A DNA stretch of 64,000 nt from a phage. Position 1 is the first letter of the stretch. The number at the start of each line of letters is the position of its first letter. The position numbers were made by a program, and so were the translations under genes. The notes beneath the pieces are model-generated. The model did not search any database. It saw nothing but the letters and a program-made list of their open reading frames with translations, and was not told the origin of the DNA. The DNA lies in assembly GCA_028030915.1 (NCBI GenBank), contig GCA_028030915.1_4867.1; one strand, 5' to 3'. This document shows, in pieces, positions 6,401 through 23,899 of this stretch.

Positions 6401-7179
6401 CGGACAGTGTGCTAGAAACGGTAATTGGCTGTTGCCATCACTCGGCCACGTTCATGCACCGTATTTCTGTACTCGTCGCACGCACCGCAGGGCGTATTAC
6501 CACTCCAGGCGGCGTGAGCACGTATGCGGGAATCGCGGTTAACTACGGACGTGCTGCACAGGTTGTTATTGGCTTGAACGGCGTTACTGGTTCCGGCCAT
6601 GACTGGACGGCACTTAATCCATCGGTGCGTTTCAGCCACGCGCGAACAGCGGACGGTATTTCGTTCGTGGGAACGATTAACATCGATTCCAAAACGATTA
6701 ACTTTGAGCTGACGCTAACCGCGACAACAAAGACGCTGAAATACACCTTGCAGTCGACCGGCGAGTCGTGGACTGAGGATTTGTCTACCCGTCTCCGTCC
6801 TGACTATATCGACTTGACGAAACTGATTACCGATCCGAGTACGCCGATTTATCACGGCGTGGGTGGTTTGTTTAGTTCCGACACAGAAGCGCGTTTGACT
6901 TACGCTAACCTGAACACGATGCCGACAAAGAATCGTTATTACGCCACGTTCCTTGACTATGCGATTAACTATTCCGGCTTAAACCGCGCAAGATTCTTTA
7001 CTGGCGTGGTGGATGCAGGTTCAACGATTAATGAGATGAACAGCGCGATGTGCAACTATTCATACAGTTCGTTCCGACCAGTGGATACAGGTAAAATTCC
7101 ACCGGCGGCGCACCCATCCAAGATGATGACGTTCAATCCGAAAAACACGTCAGGTCGAACACTTATTATTCGTGATTAA
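3466..7179 (+). CDS. tail fibre protein (large, 1237 aa)
   Basis: aaggag SD; N-terminal region shared with the next three genes (PFY...DY...); tail-fibre-type repeat ATTTEFGLVQFGTAVDDATLA; HTHTPAALG His-x-His motif; Ser/Thr/Gly/Asn-rich fibrous composition. Confidence 0.7.
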   Translation: MAVVPDPHYQEPGNMQTGEAVTPIGTKYRMLFPAHAPFYTTSLVVKSGGKKLTLGDDYVITHAYVTGMARTGHVCHGGVWITNPKYQSGFTLDYHAIGIGEATAEMIAAEREANKDRYPVDCQWDNVIGDLYFPPVDIKFDWENWRGESELMEAIVAVGAKLGEAISRVDPIARNTLDLQYRAGVTLITSEQYATYDGTGGYTYNASRRRYSLSYQNTTFDAYSLAAKYRLPSIPPETTLNPGELIDWMLCYANGGTSILRLQLKQRAIYLTLTTAIGSGSSNYSYTLTTGLTDTELAGDIELSVVRREGNGVYDITVKTSKQTVNYSFNVDNPPSEFAPGYQKTDVAKWLKFKSGVNLNWWAGENDYVQIRSLPGAPAPDVNNDVYQLLVKYHQIVDKLYRDAPAHTHVPRKDNPHRDSWGAIRALENNGIASDATLVYGKTQPQLTDYVNNLLPKLSTLANKLLRLPAAAQSINGTFGMKPGLTSITSAVGTDESEGVGAQFTVDPRVIRFIGRDSQTVNAGNNPITWQGGANQLILYPDSRGLEFNGKKLLDPTTVGPYLPGNESGGDGLFYGTSTATVTINGNGIQSVPFICTFVPPESDDLGLMAVRLLATEFGDREDLAATPALIKKLDQQFTGKLVAVKSYINDMPLTSSIYIDKTNFGLSNVQNIPDVQLPISPLQRAELDKYAVVGHTHTPAALGIKRATTTEFGLVQFGTAVDDATLALDGGEVIRQADAITEIEKVAKTVDSGASINIIRYGLPGTDIIENGITYTDWMVTIKANDYFVGREYKVPLSTFNLAELFPATHEDAEFGVYVDAAGDDGKYIIYENPNTAETETMTKIGSIITSETGVVFVEIRNVTRLGEFRELGEHIEDDNAHIRRGMTQAEFGFTYGTGGPVWSTGAPGTKRIDADWRYAQASSYTPMLKADYDPAADKWTFKTTSLSVTDYRFVHNTFPMFQNNGITATWTPLTATADSVLETVIGCCHHSATFMHRISVLVARTAGRITTPGGVSTYAGIAVNYGRAAQVVIGLNGVTGSGHDWTALNPSVRFSHARTADGISFVGTINIDSKTINFELTLTATTKTLKYTLQSTGESWTEDLSTRLRPDYIDLTKLITDPSTPIYHGVGGLFSSDTEARLTYANLNTMPTKNRYYATFLDYAINYSGLNRARFFTGVVDAGSTINEMNSAMCNYSYSSFRPVDTGKIPPAAHPSKMMTFNPKNTSGRTLIIRD

Positions 7180-7191
7180 GGAGATTTTTGA

Positions 7192-10100
7192 ATGAAAACG
7201 TATCCTTACGATCCTCGGGGTGTAAATCCTGAGTGTCACTTCATCGAGGAACGTATCATCGACTCCGACAATCCTAACGATCGGGTGGTGATGCTAGATC
7301 ATCGCCCGTTTTTCGAAGGATTGGTGGTAAGGCTCGCCGGCTCGTCCATACCGCTTACCCGCGGGACGGACTATGAGCTGGAGTATGCTTTAACACCGTT
7401 GGACGACTCGGTGACGACCCCGGTGTTTTGCGGGGTGCATCTTATTAACCCTAAACTGCGTGGTGCGGTGGTCTTTGAAGGCCAGATGCTCGGGGGTACG
7501 TTTTACAGTGGTTTGATTGAGATGTTGGATGAGCTAATTAAGGCACTCAACAATCCAACGGCTGCAGATTGGCTGCTTTTAGGTAATCGACCTTCCCTGT
7601 ACCCAGCCACCCCTGCAGCGGTAGCTTGGTCAGACATGCTGAATAAAAAGTATGTTGCCTCTGCAGTGCATGATGTGGAGTTAGATGCCGGGGCGGCCAA
7701 CGAGCAGATTCGTGAAAAGCTTACTGAGCTGAAAGATGCGGTTTTGGGCTTAGGAACTGAAATCGCCACATTTAACTACCCCGGACACATTGCGTCGACT
7801 AACCCTCATGGGACTACCGCGGCGCAGGCCGGTGCGCATCCTGTCAACCTGAAAACGCCAGATACTTTCCTGGCGTATGGAAAGACGTTGCGTCAGTTAA
7901 CCAGCGAGGTCCGTGCACTGGGTCTGCAACAATCGGATATCGACAAGTACATTTCTAAATGGGTATCGAAAGAATCCAGAGGGGTGTTTAATGCGACGAT
8001 ATCCGGTACTCGTGCCCTGTTCCGTTCTCCTGCTGGTGAATCCGAAATTGTGTTCTCTGCTGAGGCATTCACTCTTAAATCTAATGGCTCTGTTGTGTTG
8101 GCGTGTGGGTATGCCGACACTACTGGAACCGTCCGGTTTATGGAGTGGAAAGCAGGCATCAATACATTACGTATTGAGTCGACTGGCAGTGCCTTGGGGA
8201 TGGATAAGCTGACGCTTAATGGTACGACGTTACTGACCACAACCGCTCTCATGGGCTATCAACAAGACCCTGGTACCGGCGGTGGTACCGTTGACCCGGA
8301 TGACAACAAACTGTACATTAGCGGGGTGAACGGCATTACTTTCACGGGTAAAGGGTCAAAAGCCGATCCTGTCACCGGGAAGGTCACAGCCAAACCCGCG
8401 ACGACCTCTGAACCAGGCGTTGTGACGCTGACTGATAAGCCGAGCGATGTAGTCAAAGGGCAAGCAGCCACCCCGTCGGCGCTTTTGCCGTATGAGGGCG
8501 ACCTGTCTTCGTACGTCAGGAAGACAACGCTGCTGAATAACCAGCCGATGAACACTGGTAGTCGAACGCTGACGAAAAAGGATTTGGGTTTAGACTTGGC
8601 TGATAACACAGCCGACGTCGATAAACCACTTTCTGACGCGTTGGCAGAAGCAGTTACCGGTCTTAGCGATAAAGGCCATCATCACAACTTCGCTGATTTA
8701 CAGATCCCAACGGCTTCTCAAACTGTGCCAGGCATCGCGCGATACTCTACCAACTTAAACGGCTTGGCGGATAATCGTGGCGTTACCCCGAACGTTCTGA
8801 ACGAATTGTCAAAACGTTTAGACGTGGTTGCAGCCGCGTTAGCAAACGCGAAAGAGGATTCCGTGGCCGACTTCGCCGCTGTGCGTGGTAAGACATGGAC
8901 TGTGGGGTCTACGCGTACTACCCTCGCTGTAACAGATTTGAACTATTTCTATCTGTTAAATGGTACACGTAAAGAGGGGACGGTATCCGGCTCGATAGAC
9001 CTGCAAACCACACCGATGTTCCAGTGGTTCTCTCCGGATAACCGTATGGAAAGAACGTGGCAAAACGCGGTAATTAATACCGGTGCCGGTATTGATTTTA
9101 GTGGGTTCGAGGTTGCTGTCCCGGAAACAAACTACGGTGCGCAGATTGGTTTAACGACAACCGGAATGGGTGATTTGTCAGTCGTTAACCTCTTGGCGAA
9201 AACGTGGGTTCGTTGCGACTCTGGTAAGCTGCGGATTTGGGTTCGTGGCGGTGGTGCTGTTTCTGTTTATCTGGACGGTGAAATTATCGGTGCGGGTATT
9301 ACAGAAGCGGGGTATCTGGAGGCGACTGTCAAAGAGGGGTGGAAGCAACACTGCTTAGCATTCCGTGCAGAATGTAACGATAGCGCTAAAGCAGCCGCAA
9401 TTCGTTTCACAATTTACGACGGTGACTTTGCGGTTGGGGCCTCGGATAAAAACACCAAAGTTGCCCGCCTGCAGGAGTTTGTTAAGACGCCGAACGGTTT
9501 AAGGCATTACCTCTATGTGAACATGATAACCGATGCGTTATATTCGCGCGCCGAACCTATTGTGGACACGGAAGGTATTAACTTGGAACGCGGCTATATC
9601 GGCCACATTGATGTCCCTGACGCGGGATTGGTTGCAGGCACGACTTACGAGTTTGAAACGACGTTTGATTTTGGCATGGCGTCCGAACTTAAACGGCACT
9701 TCGAAACACGTCTAGCACACGGGGTGAGTAACACCGACTGGTCGTTGACGGATAACCCGAAAATGCTGCCGTTGAATAAGGTTGATCCATTACCTAAACA
9801 ATGGCTGTATGCGTATCCAACTAACCCGTCTGTTTCTGGGGATAACCTCGTTCGTTTAGATCGTGGGTTATTTGATTATAAATTCGTAAGTGCCACCTCG
9901 CTCAGGATTCTTCTTGCGGCGGTTGTTTCCACTGAAAACGCGTCCCCGTATTGCTGGTTTACACCAAGCAACCCGAAAGAAAATGGAATGGCGACATTCG
10001 AGGGTTCGGTGGTAATCGACACTGATTATCCTGAAGTCCCAAAAACCTCGGACGTCGAAGTTTCATTAAACTTCATGGCCCCTTCTGCTGATGGGAAAGG

Positions 10101-16601: not shown

Positions 16602-16648
16602 CAGATAGCGCTATGGGGCAAGGAAGCCCCAATCAAAGGAGTTTGGCA

Positions 16649-17851
16649 ATGGCCGAAATCATTCATCAGTACCCGCTCGACCTTACCGGGACATTAACGT
16701 CGAACGCCGTTACACGGCGTATTACGTTAGGTTCTGGTAAAGTTAACCGGGCTTTTGCATTTCCTGACGGAGCTTTCTACGCGGATACCTTCCGCTTGGC
16801 AGCTGCGAATAAACCAGGTGTCTACCCGTACAAACGCGGCACAGACTACGAACTGATTTTTGCACATACTGCATATCAGAAAATGACCAAGAACCGCGAA
16901 GTGGTCATGGGTGTGGTGGTAACTAACTCGGCCATTCCTACTGATATCGAGGTCTCTGCGCAAGTCGTTGGTGGTTTTCAGTCTGCGAACGTCGAAGGCA
17001 TCCGACAAGCGATTGCGTCGTTGAAAATTGAAGACCGCGTGGTGGACTTCAAGGATCTTCGAAACGTACCCGATACGTTCCCGTCCGCCCCGACGTATAA
17101 AGACCTTGGCGATATCTACGGTTTTGAGTATATCATTACCGTACTCGCGGGGATTAAAGATGCGATTAACTCCGGCTCTGCAGTACAGCTGGAAGAAATT
17201 AAAGGTATTCTGGATGGTCTGAAAAACGACTTCCTCGACGCCTTAAATACCCACATCAACGCCGAAGGTAACGTACACAATCTCGACATTCATCAGGTTA
17301 ATGGCCTGACGGAGACGGAGATTCGTGCCCTGATTCAAAGTGTACAGACTGCCATTGACGCCACTATCAGAGATATCGGCGACTTAAGAGCAGCAGACAC
17401 GGCATTGGGGCAACGCATCGATGCAATTGTGGCTTCGTTAGCCGCGTGGAACGACCAGCTTAACGTGGTTGCTCAAAATTACCAGAAAATGTCGTTAGCA
17501 TTAGCTAACCTTAATTCTCTGGTGTTGCAATTACAGAAGATGGTTAACGATCTTCAGTCTGCACTGAATGAAACAAATCAGCGTGTCACGGATCTTGAGA
17601 ATCAGGGCAAAGACTTCCAACAGCAAATTGATAACCTGCAAGGACAAATCAACAGTCTTAAAACTCAGGTTGTAAACAACACCAACGCAATTTCGCAGGC
17701 AAACCAGAATCTGGCGAACCATGCGGCTGCGGATAACCCACACCCGAATTACCTCCATAAACAGTATGGCGGTGTTGTGCAGGCTGCTGTTCACGTCAAC
17801 AACAACCTCACCTCGCGCGACGATGTTCAAGCTGAAGCGGGTACTAAGTAA
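16649..17851 (+). CDS. tail fibre-associated coiled-coil protein (about 400 aa)
   Basis: start refined to ATG 16649 (aaggag SD); N-terminal KRGTDYELIFAHTAY region shared with the fibre genes; long heptad-like segment LQLQKMVNDLQSALNETNQRVTDLENQGKDFQQQIDNLQGQINSLKTQ. Confidence 0.6.
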   Translation: MAEIIHQYPLDLTGTLTSNAVTRRITLGSGKVNRAFAFPDGAFYADTFRLAAANKPGVYPYKRGTDYELIFAHTAYQKMTKNREVVMGVVVTNSAIPTDIEVSAQVVGGFQSANVEGIRQAIASLKIEDRVVDFKDLRNVPDTFPSAPTYKDLGDIYGFEYIITVLAGIKDAINSGSAVQLEEIKGILDGLKNDFLDALNTHINAEGNVHNLDIHQVNGLTETEIRALIQSVQTAIDATIRDIGDLRAADTALGQRIDAIVASLAAWNDQLNVVAQNYQKMSLALANLNSLVLQLQKMVNDLQSALNETNQRVTDLENQGKDFQQQIDNLQGQINSLKTQVVNNTNAISQANQNLANHAAADNPHPNYLHKQYGGVVQAAVHVNNNLTSRDDVQAEAGTK

Positions 17852-17860
17852 CTTGTTTAC

Positions 17861-17906
17861 GAGCCGGACTATGTTTATGGACATAGTCCGCTCGTTCTAC
17901 TTTTTA
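17861..17906 (+). terminator. hairpin plus T-run after the fibre operon (terminator/attenuator)
   Basis: gagccggactatgt-ttatgg-acatagtccgctc (14-bp stem, one bulge) followed by gttctactttttaagg, just before the first Cys-rich gene. Confidence 0.45.
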
Positions 17907-17916
17907 AGGAAGCGTA

Positions 17917-18309
17917 ATGGCGATATCTATTAAAGACGTCAGAAACCGCGTCCAGATAGTCGAAGCTAACATGGCGACAGGCCCCCGCATCGAGGCGCAA
18001 GTGGCCTCTAAAGCCCATAATGCGGCAGACCGATTTGGGGGTTGGACGAAAGCACAGCTAGATTGCGGCGGGACATGTTCTTGGACATGCTCTAACGGTT
18101 GCTCGCACGGCTGTTCGAGCTGTTCAGGAAGCTGTTCTGCTTCTTGTATCGGTAGCTGTTCTTCGACGTGTGGCGGTAACTGTTCTGGTTGCTCTGGTTG
18201 TTCTGGTGGTTGCAGTAGTAGCTGTACCGGTAACTGCACAGGTGGTTGCGGTGGCTCATGTTCTTCCAGTTGTTCCGGGGCCTGCTCCGGCGGCTGTTCA
18301 GGTCGCTAA
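17917..18309 (+). CDS. Cys/Ser/Gly-rich peptide 1, putative radical-SAM substrate (RiPP-precursor-like), 130 aa
   Basis: aaggaag SD; about 49-aa leader-like N-terminus (MAISIKDVRNRVQIVEAN...) then a core with 21 Cys at mostly CxxxC spacing; paralog of the next two ORFs. Confidence 0.7.
   Translation: MAISIKDVRNRVQIVEANMATGPRIEAQVASKAHNAADRFGGWTKAQLDCGGTCSWTCSNGCSHGCSSCSGSCSASCIGSCSSTCGGNCSGCSGCSGGCSSSCTGNCTGGCGGSCSSSCSGACSGGCSGR
18064..18306 (+). repeat. low-complexity coding repeat (about 12-nt period, TGY-TCN-GGN pattern) in the peptide-1 core
   Basis: reiterated ggttgctctggt / agctgttct units visible in the sequence; generates spurious overlapping ORFs on both strands. Confidence 0.6.
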
Positions 18310-18319
18310 GGGGGATTAA

Positions 18320-18724
18320 ATGGCAATTGGATTAAAAGAACTGAATAACCGATTAAACACGATCGATGCAAACGCTCTAAAGAATACCACGAATGTGCAA
18401 AACTACATTCGCAATAAAGCTACGAATAACGCTGACTTGTTCGCAGGTCAAGGTCGTTCGCACTACGACTGTGGTGGTACGTGTTCTTTTAGCTGCTCAA
18501 GTTGCTCTGGCGGCTGCACAGGATCTGCGACAGGTGGTTGTGGGTCGACTTGTTCGGCAAACTGTGTATCAGGCTGTAGCAGCAGCTGCACGGGCTGTAG
18601 CTCTTCGTGCTCTGGTGGTTGTAGCGGCACGTGCACAGGCAGCTGTTCTGGGGGTTGTGGTAAATCCTGCTCCGCAAACTGCTCAGGTGCGTGCTCTGGT
18701 GGTTGTTCAGGTCCTAACTCCTAA
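18320..18724 (+). CDS. Cys/Ser/Gly-rich peptide 2, putative radical-SAM substrate, 134 aa
   Basis: 10 nt after peptide 1, aggggga SD; leader MAIGLKELNNRLNTIDAN...HYDCGG; core with 20 Cys. Confidence 0.7.
   Translation: MAIGLKELNNRLNTIDANALKNTTNVQNYIRNKATNNADLFAGQGRSHYDCGGTCSFSCSSCSGGCTGSATGGCGSTCSANCVSGCSSSCTGCSSSCSGGCSGTCTGSCSGGCGKSCSANCSGACSGGCSGPNS
18470..18721 (+). repeat. low-complexity coding repeat (about 12-nt period) in the peptide-2 core
   Basis: same TGY-TCN-GGN periodicity as the peptide-1 core. Confidence 0.6.
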
Positions 18725-18739
18725 CTGACGGAGGCTTAT

Positions 18740-18946
18740 GTGATCAGTCTCAAGACTATTCGAAACCGTCTCGTTACGGCAGAAGGTTACATTACAACCG
18801 CACAGGCAAACAACTATATCGCTAACCAGGGCACCGTGTCGACCACAAATAACCTGGCTGGCTTACCGCTTTCTCACTATAACTGTAATGGTGGGTGTAG
18901 CTGGTCCTGCAGCGGAAGCTGTAGCCGTGGAGCGGGGAATCGATAA
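18740..18946 (+). CDS. Cys-rich peptide 3 (short-core paralog), 68 aa
   Basis: GTG start with gacggagg SD; leader MISLKTIRNRLVTAEGY...SHYNCNGG matches peptides 1 and 2; core only CSWSCSGSCS (4 Cys). Confidence 0.5.
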   Translation: MISLKTIRNRLVTAEGYITTAQANNYIANQGTVSTTNNLAGLPLSHYNCNGGCSWSCSGSCSRGAGNR

Positions 18947-18968
18947 CAGAAAACGTTCGGAGTATTAA

Positions 18969-19856
18969 ATGAAAAACGATTTGCATCTTGCGTATAAAAC
19001 CACATTCAACCACCCGCTGCATCTATCTTCCCCAGATTCAGTGCGTGCACACCTTGCTGACAAAGTCAGACTGATTGCACAGATTCCTGGTGAGTGGCCA
19101 AAGGTTCGTGGTCGCTTCTTGACCGACAAGAAGAACTACACCGTAGAAAATACGTTTAAGATCCGTGATATGGTTGCAGAGGCCATCGTTATCTTTAACG
19201 GCGATGGTAACTCTCGTGGCGTGTTAGTCGACGGTAAGTATTTCTTCAGTGAAGGGATTTTGAACAACAGCGTCGATTTAGAACTGATGTTTACACCGTT
19301 TGACGAACTTGAAGCAAAACCGATGGCGCGCCGTTGGTGGAGTCCGGACTATCTGGGCTCGTTCCCTTACTACTTTGTACTGGTACCTGCCGATACGGAA
19401 ACGTATTTCGACACCGAACCATACATCGATATCGAGGGGTATAAAGAACTCGGCATCACCCGTTTAGCGGACATGATGGCGTATAGCTATAAGTTCGTGT
19501 GGGATAAAAAGCGTTCTGTCTGGTATGCACTGACTGACGATTTCGAAATCACCAAACGTATTCGTAAACCGTGGATGCAACATCTGGTTCAAACCCGATA
19601 TGGGGATTATCCGGCGACGGAAGCGGATTTGAGTAAGCTGGTAAGTTTCCTCTTAACGAAGGTGGATTTAACGAAAGAAGAAGCAGAAGCTGTTTCTGAG
19701 ATTCGTGGTCGTTCGGTAACGTTGGCCGATTTGAAACGCCTGAACGAAAGACACGCCGACCTGAACAAAATTTTAGCTGCCTATCACGACCCGATGTTAC
19801 TGGTGCCCGGCGCTAATGTAGACGAAGATCCTTTATTCGCCATTGATTATATTTAA
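18969..19856 (+). CDS. hypothetical protein (295 aa) between the Cys-rich peptides and the radical-SAM genes
   Basis: ATG at 18969 with ggag SD, 22 nt after peptide 3; no recognisable motif; position suggests a role in the cluster. Confidence 0.6.
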   Translation: MKNDLHLAYKTTFNHPLHLSSPDSVRAHLADKVRLIAQIPGEWPKVRGRFLTDKKNYTVENTFKIRDMVAEAIVIFNGDGNSRGVLVDGKYFFSEGILNNSVDLELMFTPFDELEAKPMARRWWSPDYLGSFPYYFVLVPADTETYFDTEPYIDIEGYKELGITRLADMMAYSYKFVWDKKRSVWYALTDDFEITKRIRKPWMQHLVQTRYGDYPATEADLSKLVSFLLTKVDLTKEEAEAVSEIRGRSVTLADLKRLNERHADLNKILAAYHDPMLLVPGANVDEDPLFAIDYI

Positions 19857-19878
19857 AAATATACTGGAGCAACCTGCA

Positions 19879-20793
19879 ATGACAGATCAAGTAGAATCCA
19901 GGATCTCGTCTGAACTGTACGACAAACCGTCAATTCTGTCGGTTGTCGCAACTTCTAAGTGTAACTTAGACTGTAGCTTCTGTGGAGGGGCTTATTACAT
20001 GGATAGAGAAGATACTTCTCGTGAGTTTCAACGTGAAGAGATTCTCTCGATTTTAGAGAAGAATCCGGATATCGGTGAGATTCATTGGACGGGCGGTGAG
20101 CCGCTGTTAGCGCAGCGCAAGATTGAAGACTTCGTGAACGAGTTGAAGGAGTCTCATCCGAACCTCCGTCATCACATGTACACCAACGGTTTAAAGATGC
20201 GTAAATCACATCTGCCGTTGCTGAAACAGTTCGACCTTATCTTTGTGTCCATTGACGGCTACAAGAAGTCGGAACGTCCGTTTATGAACTTTGTAAACGG
20301 TGGTAATCATGAAGCGCTGGAAGTGCTGTACGAGCTGGACAACTATTACACCTGGGGTGTGATGACGCGTGACCAGTTAGGTGATAAACGCTGGTACGAA
20401 GATTTCATCGAGCTGCACCGAGCAATCTATCATTACCGTCCAGGTGGGATGTCGTTGCTGTTTGATGCGATGATGCCGAAACCGTTATCGCCAGACCACG
20501 TCATGAACTTCATGTACGGGTATTGGAAAATACTCGACAATATCGAACGCCTTAACATGCAGAACGATTCTGAATGTGGGCTTGCGATCAGTAAAATGTT
20601 CGATACCGAGTGCAACACGTGCAGTGAAGTTCTGTGGCTTAACGCCGACGGTACGCAGGAGCAAATTCAGAACGCCCCAGAGATATTGGAAGTCGGCTGT
20701 AATCGCCTGGCGCGTTCTATCGGCGTTGATGCGTATAACTACATCAACCGTGTAATTTCTGCTAAGCGTAAACGGGCGGCGAACAATGAGTAA
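19879..20793 (+). CDS. radical SAM enzyme (about 304 aa)
   Basis: start refined to ATG 19879 (ctggag SD; the listed start is TTG at 19843); canonical CNLDCSFC (CxxxCxxC) cluster motif; GGEPLL motif; C-terminal Cys group ECNTCSEV...VGCNRL. Confidence 0.75.
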   Translation: MTDQVESRISSELYDKPSILSVVATSKCNLDCSFCGGAYYMDREDTSREFQREEILSILEKNPDIGEIHWTGGEPLLAQRKIEDFVNELKESHPNLRHHMYTNGLKMRKSHLPLLKQFDLIFVSIDGYKKSERPFMNFVNGGNHEALEVLYELDNYYTWGVMTRDQLGDKRWYEDFIELHRAIYHYRPGGMSLLFDAMMPKPLSPDHVMNFMYGYWKILDNIERLNMQNDSECGLAISKMFDTECNTCSEVLWLNADGTQEQIQNAPEILEVGCNRLARSIGVDAYNYINRVISAKRKRAANNE

Positions 20794-22114
20794 CAGCGAA
20801 CAGCAAATCCAGTACACACCACGCACATATCAGGTCGTGACTAACTTGTCATGTAACCTGGACTGCGAATACTGCTACGAGCGTAAATACCCACGCAACA
20901 ACAAAGTAGCTGACGTGATTGATTTTATCCACGCTTGCTTCGAGCGTGATAAAGATATCCCGAACGTTGAAGTCATCATCGATATCATCGGTGGTGAGCC
21001 GTTCATGCAGCCTAAACTTCTTTTGGCGGCCTTTGAAACCGCAGAGAAGTTATGTGCAGAACACAATCGCCCGTATATGTTCAGTATCTCCACGAACGGT
21101 ACGCTTCTGGACCGTCCGCTGAACAAAGAAATTATCGAGCGCTGGAAAGACAAACTGTCTATTGGGGTCTCCATCGATGGTTTACCTGAAATCCATGACA
21201 AATATCGTATCTTTACCACGACGCGTGAAGGGTCGTACGAAGCTGCGGTACGCGGTTACAATTACCTGAAGAGTGTTGGCATCGCTGAGCTGGGCGTAAA
21301 GGCGACGTTTACGATCGATACATTGCCGCACTATGCCGCCAGCATGAAATCGTTAATTGACATGTCCGGCGGTGGTACCATTTCTGGTAACGTAACGTAC
21401 GAAGATATCCTGCCGCGCCATATGGCGTTGGATATCGCGAACCAGATGATGGACGTGATGGACTACTGGATTGAGAAGGGTCTGCACACCAACCCGCGTA
21501 ACACGATTACGCACATCATCCCGGATGGCCTGAACTTTATGGCAACTTGGGACCCGGATTGGCGTGACAAACTCTTACATGACGACTCTGTTCGTCTCGA
21601 CCCAGAACGCCTGAAACCGTACTGCGGTACGTTGACGCACATGACCTGTCTCGGCTTTGATCGCAAGATTTACGGTTGTAACCGTTTCATGTCCACGGTA
21701 ACTTCCCGTTCTGCTGTAGCAGAACTGGTCGGTCGTGAGTTTGTGAGCCTGGACGGTGGTAAGCTGTTAGAAGAGATTCAAACGCAGTACACCAACTACC
21801 CAGAAACCTGTTTAGGGTGTCCGATGAAACACAGCTGCGGTAGCTGCGCAGCAGCATCGTACGAAAACGGTGAAGGTACACTGGAAGACCGTAAAGCGTA
21901 TCACGCCGAGCGTCGTCAGTGTGGTTGGACTACTGCGAAGCTGATGGCGGCGGAATATTGGTATCAGAAAACTGGTACGACCCGCGCATCAGATTTGCAC
22001 GATAAATCCATGTGCTATTGTTCACGTTGTGTACGCCAACGTGCTGAAGCAGAAAAATTACAAAACGGAGCCCAGAATGAAGTCAATACTGATTCACAAT
22101 TTTACGAAGCGTAA
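20786..22114 (+). CDS. radical SAM enzyme with SPASM-like Cys-rich C-terminal domain (442 aa)
   Basis: start overlaps the upstream stop (ATGAGTAA, translational coupling); CNLDCEYC motif; GGEPFM; C-terminal Cys cluster YCGTLTHMTC...GCNRF...CLGCPMKHSCGSCAAA...RQCGW...CYCSRC. Confidence 0.8.
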   Translation: MSNSEQQIQYTPRTYQVVTNLSCNLDCEYCYERKYPRNNKVADVIDFIHACFERDKDIPNVEVIIDIIGGEPFMQPKLLLAAFETAEKLCAEHNRPYMFSISTNGTLLDRPLNKEIIERWKDKLSIGVSIDGLPEIHDKYRIFTTTREGSYEAAVRGYNYLKSVGIAELGVKATFTIDTLPHYAASMKSLIDMSGGGTISGNVTYEDILPRHMALDIANQMMDVMDYWIEKGLHTNPRNTITHIIPDGLNFMATWDPDWRDKLLHDDSVRLDPERLKPYCGTLTHMTCLGFDRKIYGCNRFMSTVTSRSAVAELVGREFVSLDGGKLLEEIQTQYTNYPETCLGCPMKHSCGSCAAASYENGEGTLEDRKAYHAERRQCGWTTAKLMAAEYWYQKTGTTRASDLHDKSMCYCSRCVRQRAEAEKLQNGAQNEVNTDSQFYEA

Positions 22115-22643
22115 ACTGCACTTGGTCGATCGCTTCCTGCGCAAAAGCAAGCTGTACAATGTGCACGCAATTGTGGCAGGGGAAGACTTCACTGATGAAA
22201 TCCAAAGCCTGTTGATTAAATACGGGCTGAATGTGATGATCCCGGTCTACTGCGTTGAGAAAGGACACGAGTCTGTCGCGGAAATCGAAAAGCGCAACCC
22301 TGGCTTTGAGAAGCGACTGCTTGCATACCCACGCCACAAAATCGAACTGCTACGACACTCTATTGATGAAGCCAGTCCTGAAAGTTTAGTGGCATTGGGC
22401 TTGTCTTTCCCGCGGATGCGTATTCGTAACTTACGCTCCAATAACCCGGTTGACGCTTATTACACAGAGCGTCAAATCTTCGAAGAACACCTGCTCCCGC
22501 AGTTGGAAGAAGAAGAGCAACACAACATTTCTCTGTTGTGGGCCGGTAACCTCGATCAGGACTTCCAGATGCTGGACTTCGGTTTGTTGTTAGAACTTGG
22601 CCTGATTGAGGAGGACGAATGTCTGTTACTGACAAAAGCTTAA
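22077..22643 (+). CDS. hypothetical protein (188 aa from refined start)
   Basis: ATG 22077 with acggag SD; overlaps the radical-SAM 3' end by 38 nt in another frame; no motif recognised. Confidence 0.5.
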   Translation: MKSILIHNFTKRKLHLVDRFLRKSKLYNVHAIVAGEDFTDEIQSLLIKYGLNVMIPVYCVEKGHESVAEIEKRNPGFEKRLLAYPRHKIELLRHSIDEASPESLVALGLSFPRMRIRNLRSNNPVDAYYTERQIFEEHLLPQLEEEEQHNISLLWAGNLDQDFQMLDFGLLLELGLIEEDECLLLTKA

Positions 22644-23290
22644 CGAACGAAGAGATCCGCGCCCGTTATTTCCAGCGTGATTTGCCGATTGATCGTCACG
22701 GTAATTTCATGGAACGAATCGGTGCGCAGGATCAGGGCCGTACCGGATTTTGTGCATTACTCCATTACCATCTCATCGAAGGGATGTCTGATAAAGAAGC
22801 CCTGGCACGCATGAAGCTGTATGAGATGTCGGAGATTGAAGCTAACTTCACATTGAAACGCACGAAAGAGTTTATTGCTAATGTGCTGGAGATTGACCTC
22901 GACGAAATTCGCGGGAATCTGAAATCTACCGCACGTTACATTTACGAAGACGTGCAGAAGATGCTGTTGGAACTCGACCACCGCTACGAAGATGAGCGCC
23001 ATGGTTATATCGAGTTTGAAGGTAGTCACTTTCAAGCCGATGAATCGTCGCGTACCATCCTCGGTCAATACATTCAGGCAGATACCGCACCAGAATACTG
23101 GCTCGATACGCTGAATACTAAGCACAGTCCGTTTACAGTAGCCCAATGTAAAGCGTTGCTGGCCGCTATTGTTGCACGTGACCAAGTGTTGCACTCAGCA
23201 ATGGCAGATAACAAACGCCAAATCCGTGAGTTAGCTGAAAAGCGCGATTACACTGGATTAAAAACATTGTCCGAGTCACTCGGCATGTAA
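22619..23290 (+). CDS. hypothetical protein (223 aa), last gene of the + operon
   Basis: ATG 22619 with gaggagg SD, overlapping the upstream gene end; followed by a terminator. Confidence 0.6.
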   Translation: MSVTDKSLTNEEIRARYFQRDLPIDRHGNFMERIGAQDQGRTGFCALLHYHLIEGMSDKEALARMKLYEMSEIEANFTLKRTKEFIANVLEIDLDEIRGNLKSTARYIYEDVQKMLLELDHRYEDERHGYIEFEGSHFQADESSRTILGQYIQADTAPEYWLDTLNTKHSPFTVAQCKALLAAIVARDQVLHSAMADNKRQIRELAEKRDYTGLKTLSESLGM

Positions 23291-23348
23291 GCAAAGAAAA
23301 TAAAGGCCCTACCTCCCCGAAGGGAGGTAGGTACCTTTTATTTATTTC
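23291..23348. terminator. bidirectional rho-independent terminator at the convergence point of the + and - modules
   Basis: hairpin cctacctccc-cgaa-gggaggtagg (23308..23331) flanked by A-rich and T-rich runs; between the 23290 (+) stop and the 23372 (-) stop. Confidence 0.6.
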
Positions 23349-23371
23349 TTAGAAACTACTAAGTTGTTTTG

Positions 23372-23899
23372 TTAAACGAATCCGTCCAGTTCACCGTTGG
23401 TGGTGCTCAGGTCAGTTTTAACGATTGGCTGCGTTACAGTATAAACTGCAAGGCTGGCAGGTTGGTATTTAATGTGGCCTTCTTTCACCATAACAGTGAT
23501 GATTTTCTCACCACTGTCGCCGTCCTCGCGTGAAATGGTGAGTTCAGACAATGCAAACGCATCTTCCGTTTTACCGGCGGCAATTAGATCTGCGTTGACA
23601 AAAGCAAGCACTTCTTCATCGGTATCCCATTCTGCCTGGTCAGCGGTAACTGCTTTCGCACCGATGATGTTCAATGAATCGAGGCGGGTGTAATGCAGCT
23701 CTTTCTCGCCAGTAAAGTTAGCGGATTCCGCGGTGGCAGTGATGGTGAGTTTGGAGTTGCGAGTGTCTCCAGAATCTGCTGGTGAATAGTCAGCAACAGC
23801 GCCGAATGTAACGTCAGCAGTAGTTAACGGACTAGACAGTCCGCTGTTTGCAGCATTAAACAGCGCGACGAGTTGGTCTTTTGCAGAGATGACTGCCAT
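23372..23899 (-). CDS. paralog-family protein, short member with C-terminal NGELDGF tag (175 aa)
   Basis: N-terminus MAVISAKDQLVALFNAANSG resembles the family N-terminus; C-terminus TDLSTTNGELDGFV matches the tag of the A-type proteins. Confidence 0.6.
   Translation of the reverse strand: MAVISAKDQLVALFNAANSGLSSPLTTADVTFGAVADYSPADSGDTRNSKLTITATAESANFTGEKELHYTRLDSLNIIGAKAVTADQAEWDTDEEVLAFVNADLIAAGKTEDAFALSELTISREDGDSGEKIITVMVKEGHIKYQPASLAVYTVTQPIVKTDLSTTNGELDGFV

Follow-up and report, generated by a model that had tools for sequence, protein, structure and literature searches.

A radical-SAM enzyme pair and three cysteine-repeat proteins in the tail-fibre module of an SPN3US-like jumbo phage: a candidate fibre maturation cassette

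We analysed a 64,000-nucleotide stretch of phage DNA (contig GCA_028030915.1_4867.1; the window) and, within it, a block of genes in which three small cysteine-repeat proteins, here named pepA, pepB and pepC, are encoded together with two radical S-adenosylmethionine (radical-SAM, rSAM) enzymes. Sequence comparison of positions 17800-23400 showed 98-99% nucleotide identity to Salmonella phage SPN3US and its close relatives, which are Seoulvirus jumbo myoviruses of about 240 kb. The window is that of an SPN3US-like jumbo phage, and the block equates to SPN3US genes gp167 to gp161. An initial annotation of the same DNA had listed three small open reading frames (ORFs) of 130, 134 and 68 amino acids (aa), a 295-aa ORF, two radical-SAM genes and two further ORFs; all of them were recovered in place and with the cysteine counts given there, as were the overlap of the two radical-SAM genes and the terminator at the end of the block. 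The genes of the block are as follows.

pepA, 17917..18309, plus strand: 130 aa with 21 Cys; a helical N-terminal segment of about 49 aa, then an 81-aa CxxxC-repeat core
pepB, 18320..18724, plus strand: 134 aa with 20 Cys; paralogue of pepA
pepC, 18740..18946, plus strand: 68 aa with 4 Cys, GTG start; short paralogue made of the leader and the junction motif CNGGCSWSC
gp165 homologue, 18969..19856, plus strand: 295-aa accessory protein, the third conserved component of the cassette
rSAM-1 (gp164 homologue), 19879..20793, plus strand: about 304 aa, with CNLDCSFC (CX3CX2C) and GGEP; ORF open from TTG 19843
rSAM-2 (gp163 homologue), 20786..22114, plus strand: 442 aa, radical-SAM/SPASM, with CNLDCEYC and GGEP
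gp162 homologue, 22077..22643, plus strand: 188 aa, ORF open from GTG 22029; PHROG 7988, function unknown
gp161 homologue, 22619..23290, plus strand: 223 aa; DUF4376 (E 1.4e-9, 38.8 bits, cut-off 25) and a weak match to PHROG 2837 'tail protein'

The region of the pep genes is open in several frames on both strands, and public annotations of it disagree. Codon-position statistics ruled out that the Cys ORFs are a low-complexity artefact of this openness. Compared with STsAS, at 80% nucleotide identity, 45 codon changes in the pepA core were synonymous and 2 non-synonymous (differences at the three codon positions, 2/2/45), and 48 in the pepB core were synonymous and 5 non-synonymous (4/5/50), whereas the N-terminal segments were less constrained (synonymous to non-synonymous, 16:14 in pepA and 16:10 in pepB). 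A Shine-Dalgarno (SD) site lies 4-6 nt before each start (pepA, AAGGAAG-4-ATG; pepB, AAGGGGG-5-ATG; pepC, GGAGG-5-GTG). All seven genera examined carry pepA (127-130 aa, always 21 Cys and in the Cys frame), pepB (130-142 aa, 20-23 Cys) and pepC (68-69 aa, 2-4 Cys), and the three genes are likewise encoded in 18 of 18 IMG/VR jumbo loci, with 21 Cys in pepA in every case. Because of the codon-position statistics, the SD sites and the presence in all relatives checked, we conclude that pepA, pepB and pepC are real genes under strong purifying selection.

The cores consist of 25% Cys, 30% Ser, 26% Gly and 8% Thr, with essentially no Asp or Glu, and the repeat domain follows the pattern C-[ST]-G-x. 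The spacing from one Cys to the next is 4 in 85% of intervals and 3 in 14%, and 70-81% of Cys residues are followed by Ser or Thr. The unusually strong conservation of every small core residue argues for a tightly packed defined structure and not for a disordered linker. The leaders are paralogous (pepA-pepB, 39% identity, E 2e-13), with no further copy in the window, and leader and core meet at a junction, N-x-x-L-x-G-x5-Y-x-C-x-G-[ST]-C-[ST]-W-[ST]-C, that is conserved in the pep proteins and in all related fibre C-termini described below; its Trp is nearly invariant. The leader ending HY[DN]C[GN]GG, which the initial annotation had ascribed to all three proteins, holds for pepB and pepC, while pepA has QLDCGG. 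PHROG 6085 matched pepA (E 1e-40), pepB (E 3e-41) and pepC (E 3e-24). Against TIGR04114 the scores were 19.6, 17.1 and 13.7 bits for pepA, pepB and pepC, with a cut-off of 20; the repeat pattern and the adjacency to radical-SAM genes are both present. The predicted diagnostic tryptic peptides of the leaders are VQIVEANMATGPR, IEAQVASK and FGGWTK for pepA, and LNTIDANALK and NTTNVQNYIR for pepB.

For the comparative search pepB, gp165 and rSAM-2 were used as queries, and the encoding contigs were then read. The set of a CxxxC protein, a gp165-like protein, an rSAM-1-like and an rSAM-2-like enzyme recurred in T7-like podoviruses, lambda-like prophages, other myoviruses and another jumbo contig. 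In two T7-like contigs (L007, L008), tube, nozzle and gp14-like genes are followed, in this order, by a T7 tail-fibre N-terminal adaptor (PF03906; 229 aa), a collagen-like fibre (118 aa), a CxxxC protein (206 aa), a gp165-like protein (238 aa) and an enzyme of 668 aa. The CxxxC protein shares its N-terminal domain with the collagen-like fibre and adds a CxxxC tail to it, and the enzyme of L007 is a fusion of an rSAM-1-like N-terminal half with one that is rSAM-2-like (E 9e-58, with 34.5% identity over 403 aa). Two further contigs (L009, L035) carry T7-like variants of the same cassette. A lambda-like prophage of Deferribacter abyssi (L037) encodes gpM, gpL, gpK, gpJ, two small ORFs, a fibre, a gp165-like protein, an rSAM-1-like enzyme and an rSAM-2-like enzyme (38% identity, E 1e-89), with bacterial genes next; the cassette order is that of the window, and the 302-aa fibre, with HDxRYYTE repeats and 29 Cys, has the end '...KATNADQLGGQAGSYYRCSDCSWTCSSSC...'. 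A similar locus (L039) has three radical-SAM genes, and the cassette was also read in a myovirus-like contig (L038), in a 213-kb contig whose 568-aa fibre has 30 Cys (L031) and in three contigs of 30-35 kb (L032-L034). Two IMG/VR jumbo contigs carry, between pepA and pepB, an extra rSAM-1 paralogue about 55% identical to rSAM-1 of the window (L014, 4542-5444; L029, 4543-5445), in addition to the copy that normally follows gp165. The cultured phages with the pepB leader belong to the same taxa as those with full-length rSAM-2. Read from sequence and gene order, the association of the four genes with tail fibres is a repeated one that is independent of lineage.

The pep proteins themselves have fibre relatives. 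PHROG 6085, the pep family, matches the C-termini of the fibre proteins of these cassettes, starting from within the 'leader' part of the profile, while the N-termini of the same proteins match tail-fibre PHROGs. The leader of pepC, which is almost without Cys-rich sequence that could bias the score, matches residues 100-156 of a T7-like fibre protein with 37% identity (E 8e-10), and fibre proteins of 200-570 aa contain the Cys domain as a covalent part in at least five further lineages. By these alignments the usual form of the Cys-repeat region is that of a C-terminal fibre domain, and the pep proteins are homologous to fibre C-termini; they thus combine tail-fibre homology, in the fibre C-termini of PHROG 6085 and in the leader, with a location directly after gp167-170. 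The initial description of a leader plus core precursor, as in peptides that ribosomes make and that are then modified post-translationally (RiPPs), is not the reading we favour, since leader and junction are homologous to the segment that precedes the Cys repeat in genuine fibre proteins and the core is the more conserved part, the reverse of typical RiPPs.

Other arrangements were seen in the same comparison. The fibre module of the T7-like contigs (L007, 9632-9985; L009, 7899-8297) is divided between a gp17-N-terminal adaptor and a pair of small proteins with a common N-terminal domain; because one of the two has a collagen-like G-x-y tail and the other a CxxxC tail, the Cys repeat takes the place of the collagen-like shaft. 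One contig (L041) encodes a bona fide TIGR04115 enzyme (382.6 bits, cut-off 350) and a PF27846 'tSAM_targ_Cxxx_rpt' protein among tail-fibre genes, while the relatives of rSAM-2 scored 132-178 bits against TIGR04115 (cut-off 350). In another (L036) a 187-aa protein with HxH-type motifs (7423-7986) ends in a period-2 Cys repeat (CCECECTCTCTCECTCACTCTCECRC), and directly 3' of it lies a radical-SAM gene (7893-9098) whose product is 26% identical to rSAM-2; the pair may be a further variant of the theme of a Cys repeat beside a radical-SAM enzyme. Two CxxxC-repeat PF27846 proteins, P0013 and P0026, have an N-terminal twin-arginine-type signal (SRRKFL.., SRREFFKKAA..), which suggests that there are versions of the repeat domain that are exported and possibly cellular. 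Contig L042 was excluded from the comparison; there the called radical-SAM gene (6704-7984) has 7 in-frame stops under table 11 and the Cys-protein gene does not translate to the query, which may reflect a recoded stop codon or a mis-oriented locus.

Both enzymes of the block are radical-SAM proteins, as initially proposed: in the profile search against PF04055 rSAM-1 scored 58.6 and rSAM-2 56.2 bits (cut-off 29.5), and the cluster motif is invariant in relatives. The two share only 26% identity over the core. Their genes overlap by 8 nt, the rSAM-1 stop and the rSAM-2 start lying in ATGAGTAA, and the true start of rSAM-1 is likely ATG 19879, which has a GGAG SD. The proposal that the second enzyme is of the SPASM type was supported by a complete set of SPASM cysteines. 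In addition to CX3CX2C near the N-terminus, rSAM-2 has eight invariant C-terminal Cys that are kept in all relatives, including the T7-like fusion; they include C342/C345/C351/C354 and C379, with the spacing CX2CX5CX2C and not CX3C, and the alignment to the PapB model (residues 22-357) runs through this region. In Pfam no family besides Radical_SAM and Fer4_12 was found for rSAM-2 at E ≤ 0.1. Its best NCBIfam match was TIGR04115 (E 3e-36, 125.5 bits, below the cut-off of 350), followed by PapB (NF047865; E 1e-32, 113.8 bits, below the cut-off of 340), and the further matches are other peptide maturases, all below the curated cut-offs. The best-scoring families (TIGR04115, PapB, SCIFF/CteB, QhpD and CcpM) are maturases that form Cys thioethers or act on Cys-rich peptides, and the best match in the PDB was CteB (5wgg, E 4e-10). 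By these profile matches rSAM-2 is nearest to the peptide maturases. The NCBIfam matches of rSAM-1 were generic and N-terminal, including HxsC (E 6e-12), and gave no specific family; a short CxxC...GC motif at its C-terminus is twitch-like and is found in the jumbo clade and in some relatives.

None of the non-peptide identities that the initial annotation had named as contrary to its proposal was supported by the profile scores. Against anSME (TIGR03942, cut-off 349; E 1e-15) rSAM-2 scored 57.6 bits and rSAM-1 34.4 bits, with PDB entries 4k36 and 4k37 also among the matches, and the anSME substrate motif C/S-x-P/A-x-R is absent from pepA, pepB and pepC. The scores of rSAM-1 against QueE (40 bits, cut-off 260) and NrdG2 (39 bits, cut-off 131) came from generic N-terminal matches only.

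The AlphaFold2 (AF2) model of gp165 is confident (pLDDT 88). It has no structural neighbour in the PDB or BFVD except its own orthologue, and no PqqD-like match. Members of its family are rare (51 of 1.84 billion cluster representatives), and we regard gp165 as a putative substrate-presenting or fibre-chaperone factor. The last two genes of the block, gp161 and gp162, are specific to the jumbo clade and absent from the non-jumbo cassettes examined. For gp162 there was no match in Pfam or the PDB; gp161, for which the PDB sequence search gave no match, may be related to fibre assembly. In the mass spectrometry (MS) of SPN3US, gp161-163 were trace 'non-virion' proteins with 3-4 peptide-spectrum matches (PSM), and gp165 and gp166 were undetected (PMC5694885, PMC10052503); for gp163, the homologue of rSAM-2, the trace 'non-virion' signal was the only one (PMC10052503 Table S2). 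Such a signal for gp161-163 fits non-structural maturation factors.

The block is part of a virulent jumbo phage's tail-fibre module, with the large proteins gp168-170 and then gp167 upstream of it. This location, already proposed in the initial annotation, is supported by the SPN3US gene order and by the MS assignments of gp167-173 as tail proteins of the SPN3US virion (PMC5694885 Suppl. Table 1; PMC10052503 Table S2). The same data assigned gp167 to the class 'Tail', with 880 PSM in wild-type particles vs 5 in tailless heads. The features that flank the block are the following.

gp167 homologue, 16613..17851, plus strand: abundant coiled-coil tail/fibre protein directly 5' of the block, corresponding to SPN3US_0167 'virion structural protein 20'
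terminator-like hairpin with U-run, 17859..17905, plus strand: after the gp167 stop and before pepA; 5' boundary of the block
bidirectional intrinsic terminator, 23298..23343, both strands: between the convergent genes gp161 (plus) and gp160 (minus); 3' boundary of the block

The gp167 homologue has only coiled-coil-type matches in Pfam; its ORF opens at ATG 16613, while the annotated 400-aa protein begins at ATG 16649, the start with the better SD (AAAGGAG). The hairpin at 17859..17905 folds with -23.7 kcal/mol (z = -5.6; 0 of 200 shuffles fold as well), is followed on its 3' side by UUCUACUUUUU and then by the SD of pepA, and is possibly an attenuator. The terminator at 23298..23343 folds with -25.6 kcal/mol (z = -4.7), and the scan found its stem (23308-23331, 10 bp with 7 G-C pairs) on both strands. 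The block is thus bracketed by two terminator-like structures, 5' and 3'. A scan for sigma-70 promoters, which does not cover the promoters of these phages' own type, gave nothing above the shuffled expectation.

In the GenBank/RefSeq record of SPN3US, pepA, pepB and pepC are all unannotated and gp166 is called instead:

SPN3US gp166, window 18393-18728, plus strand: Val/Ala-rich 111-aa ORF, out of frame within pepB

We rejected gp166 as a genuine gene, since it is out of frame, has no PHROG match and was never seen by MS. Opposite-strand or overlapping ORFs were called here in CR5_157, Kwan gp183, Phobos gp167/168, Asesino gp184-186 and Proteus phage 7, and Machina is the only record with all three pep genes called correctly. 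The annotated starts of SPN3US gp164 (L002, 10199-10993) and CR5_154 (L004, 8202-8981) are too far downstream, so that CX3CX2C is cut off. Several Salmonella phage SPFM records (SPFM5-10, 12, 14, 15, 20) align to the region only in some 40 short pieces, which together make up 44% of its length, and the proteins they encode look frameshifted, which suggests low-quality consensus sequences and not real divergence. Identical rSAM-2 proteins are encoded on NCBI contigs, about 240 kb long, that carry the labels Salmonella enterica, Escherichia coli and '[Curtobacterium] plantarum'; these contigs are probably complete SPN3US-like phage genomes within bacterial assemblies, present through carrier state or contamination. 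SPN3US, a jumbo phage used as a genetic model, and most of its relatives have three conserved genes that are absent from the annotation or wrongly annotated.

We compared the block with known systems of similar layout. In the CXXX-repeat radical-SAM system (targets TIGR04114/TIGR04117, maturase TIGR04115, PF27846) every fourth residue of the target is likewise a Cys, and the target lies beside a SPASM-type radical-SAM enzyme. The block differs from it in that rSAM-2 falls into a sister clade (125.5 vs 350 bits), that a second, twitch-like radical-SAM enzyme and a gp165-like accessory protein are added, and that the junction Y-x-C-x-G-x-C-S-W-x-C is absent from targets of the P0008 type. As far as a literature search could show, the CXXX-repeat family is defined in silico only, and no product, function or phage link has been published for it. 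PapB and CteB, of the ranthipeptide/SCIFF group, are thioether-forming radical-SAM/SPASM enzymes and provide, respectively, the second family and the best solved structure for rSAM-2. Both act on Cys-containing repeats and form Cys-S-to-carbon thioethers, as reported for PapB (PMC9413430), which uses Cys/Asp or Cys/Glu, while CteB is termed a ranthisynthase (PMC10288494). Compared with PapB, the pep cores are without Asp/Glu acceptors and rSAM-2 scores 113.8 vs 340 bits. Compared with CteB, rSAM-2 is without an N-terminal RiPP recognition element (RRE), because the protein begins about 20 residues before CX3CX2C. The substrates also differ, PapB and CteB acting on short secreted peptides while those proposed here are proteins of 68-134 aa or the C-termini of fibres of 200-570 aa, with about 20 Cys. 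Scans of the ORFs against Pfam, NCBIfam and PHROG and the model of gp165 showed that the block, in contrast to RiPP clusters, has no RRE, leader protease or exporter.

The His-Xaa-Ser system (HxsA, HxsB, HxsC, HxsD) has the same architecture, with a short-period repeat protein, a SPASM and a non-SPASM radical-SAM enzyme and an accessory protein. rSAM-2 matched HxsB (E 5e-21, 74.9 bits, cut-off 370) and rSAM-1 matched HxsC (45.0 bits, cut-off 268), which is also the top match of the rSAM-1-like protein of the Deferribacter prophage; the block differs in its repeat, which is based on Cys and not on His-x-Ser, and in its phage fibre context. To our knowledge, the chemistry of the Hxs system is unknown. 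By curated thresholds, the block is not a member of the CXXX-repeat, ranthipeptide or Hxs families. Virion parts that are hardened covalently or by dedicated factors include the HK97 capsid with its isopeptide cross-links, tail fibres that depend on chaperones, and collagen-like fibres. What the block would share with them is the concept of a robust virion part obtained through covalent cross-links or through non-structural assembly factors encoded just 3' of the fibre gene, and the Cys-repeat fibre of the T7-like contigs shares its N-terminal domain with a collagen-like fibre, of which it is a paralogue-like partner. Cross-linking in HK97 is autocatalytic and yields isopeptide bonds, and we know of no virion protein that is modified by radical-SAM enzymes. 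A full-text search, with most subscription-journal papers outside its reach, found no publication on radical-SAM enzymes together with tail fibres or on the function of SPN3US gp161-166, in keeping with the initial remark that this is not a described phage system.

Taking these results together, we consider it reasonably probable that the block is a tail-fibre maturation cassette, in which pepA, pepB and pepC are small proteins of the fibre module that are enzymatically modified in the cytoplasm. By their homology, the three proteins are probably a detached fibre module and not free RiPP antibiotics. Because of the analogy with the PapB, CteB and SCIFF maturases, the modification would most likely consist of Cys-to-carbon thioether cross-links. 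Late in infection, in the reducing cytoplasm, the gp165-like protein would present the Cys-repeat domain to the enzymes; we infer that rSAM-2 and rSAM-1 act on this domain of the pep proteins, linking the roughly 20 Cys per chain by thioethers to carbons of neighbouring Ser, Thr or Gly. The product would be a rigid rod or knob, redox-inert and protease-resistant, whose N-terminal segment would be kept and would dock it on the fibre apparatus for incorporation into the virion, with gp167 as a candidate partner and A, B and C as a possible trimer. In the SPN3US-like phages the module would have become three separate small proteins that retained the N-terminal segment. The rationale would be that disulfides do not form in the reducing cytoplasm in which the phage is assembled and that free thiols are a liability outside the cell, and thioethers made before lysis would yield a rod or tip that is redox-inert and resists proteases. 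A wider proposal is that the four genes form a portable cassette, exchanged among myo-, sipho- and podoviruses, that installs a radical-SAM 'thioether ladder' and so provides a covalently cross-linked receptor-binding or structural tip; we put this forward tentatively, as a possibility that falls short of being probable.

Several points weigh against a maturation cassette of this kind. The presence of pepA, pepB and pepC in the virion is a prediction; being unannotated, they are outside the databases searched in the published MS. The thioether chemistry is putative and drawn by analogy, and rSAM-2 fails the curated cut-offs of TIGR04115 (125.5 vs 350) and PapB (113.8 vs 340). The analysis detected no RRE, and the fold of gp165 is not a recognisable one. 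The Cys proteins of the jumbo clade are free-standing and small, which may be compatible with a released peptide. In the AF2 model of pepB, made from a 10-sequence alignment, pLDDT was 43, with only residues 5-34 helical and the Cys core without a fold; such a low-confidence model is probably due to a domain that needs modification or oligomerisation. Finally, radical-SAM enzymes are oxygen-labile, and SPN3US-like phages are routinely grown aerobically.

The small size of these proteins also bears on a classical RiPP system, in which the leaders of pepA, pepB and pepC would be removed and the cross-linked cores released at lysis or carried as cargo, acting as a bacteriocin, a receptor blocker or a superinfection-exclusion agent. 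The layout resembling leader plus core, the tandem paralogues beside radical-SAM/SPASM enzymes, the free-standing form of the jumbo-clade proteins and the absence of all products of the block from the virion MS lists would all agree with it. We nevertheless judge it unlikely, given that the Pfam, NCBIfam and PHROG scans found no protease, exporter or immunity gene in the block, that the core is more conserved than the leader, that leader and junction are homologous to internal segments of fibres, to which the Cys domain is fused in at least five lineages, and that the block always lies within tail-fibre modules. Of the two roles offered initially, a virion-associated one is thus favoured and a host-targeting one less so.

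The substrates and the location could also be as proposed and the chemistry another one, such as anSME-like conversion of Cys/Ser to formylglycine, epimerisation, a C-C cross-link at the CSW junction or some other radical modification. The anSME entries among the matches (E 1e-15; 4k36, 4k37), the lack of a specific family for rSAM-1, the frequent Ser/Thr after Cys (70-81%) together with the nearly invariant junction Trp, and the resemblance of the pair to HxsB/HxsC, enzymes of unknown chemistry, speak for such an outcome; the top-scoring families, which are Cys-thioether or Cys-rich-peptide maturases, and the absence of C/S-x-P/A-x-R from the cores speak against it, and we hold it to be rather unlikely. 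If instead the Cys domain were an unmodified structural or adhesive element based on metal, Fe-S or disulfides, the radical-SAM enzymes would have a different target, such as a cofactor, some component of the host surface or another protein of the fibre. A Cys content of 25% resembles that of metallothionein-like or cement-like repeats, some of the fused fibres have HxH repeats of metal-binding type, and no direct link between enzyme and substrate has been made. This reading is in our view very unlikely, because in unrelated phages with otherwise different genes the Cys protein lies in strict adjacency to the gp165-like gene and the radical-SAM pair, two loci have an rSAM-1 paralogue inserted between pepA and pepB, rSAM-2 falls in the branch of the peptide maturases, and both NCBIfam and Pfam define CXXX repeats as a class of radical-SAM targets.

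There is a substantial chance that the proposed maturation cassette represents a new category of virion modification. If it does, radical-SAM/RiPP chemistry would reach from secreted natural products to the architecture of virus particles, this would be the first case of a structural protein of the virion with an enzymatic radical modification, and phages would have a new route to covalent cross-links that are independent of disulfides in a reducing cell. The orphan CXXX-repeat family of radical-SAM targets, so far confined to databases, would gain a concrete and testable biological role, and the compact modular cassette with its defined recognition junction could serve the engineering of hyper-stable peptide rods or phage fibres. 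For the SPN3US-like phages under development against Salmonella, E. coli and Erwinia, such a modification could affect host range and particle stability.

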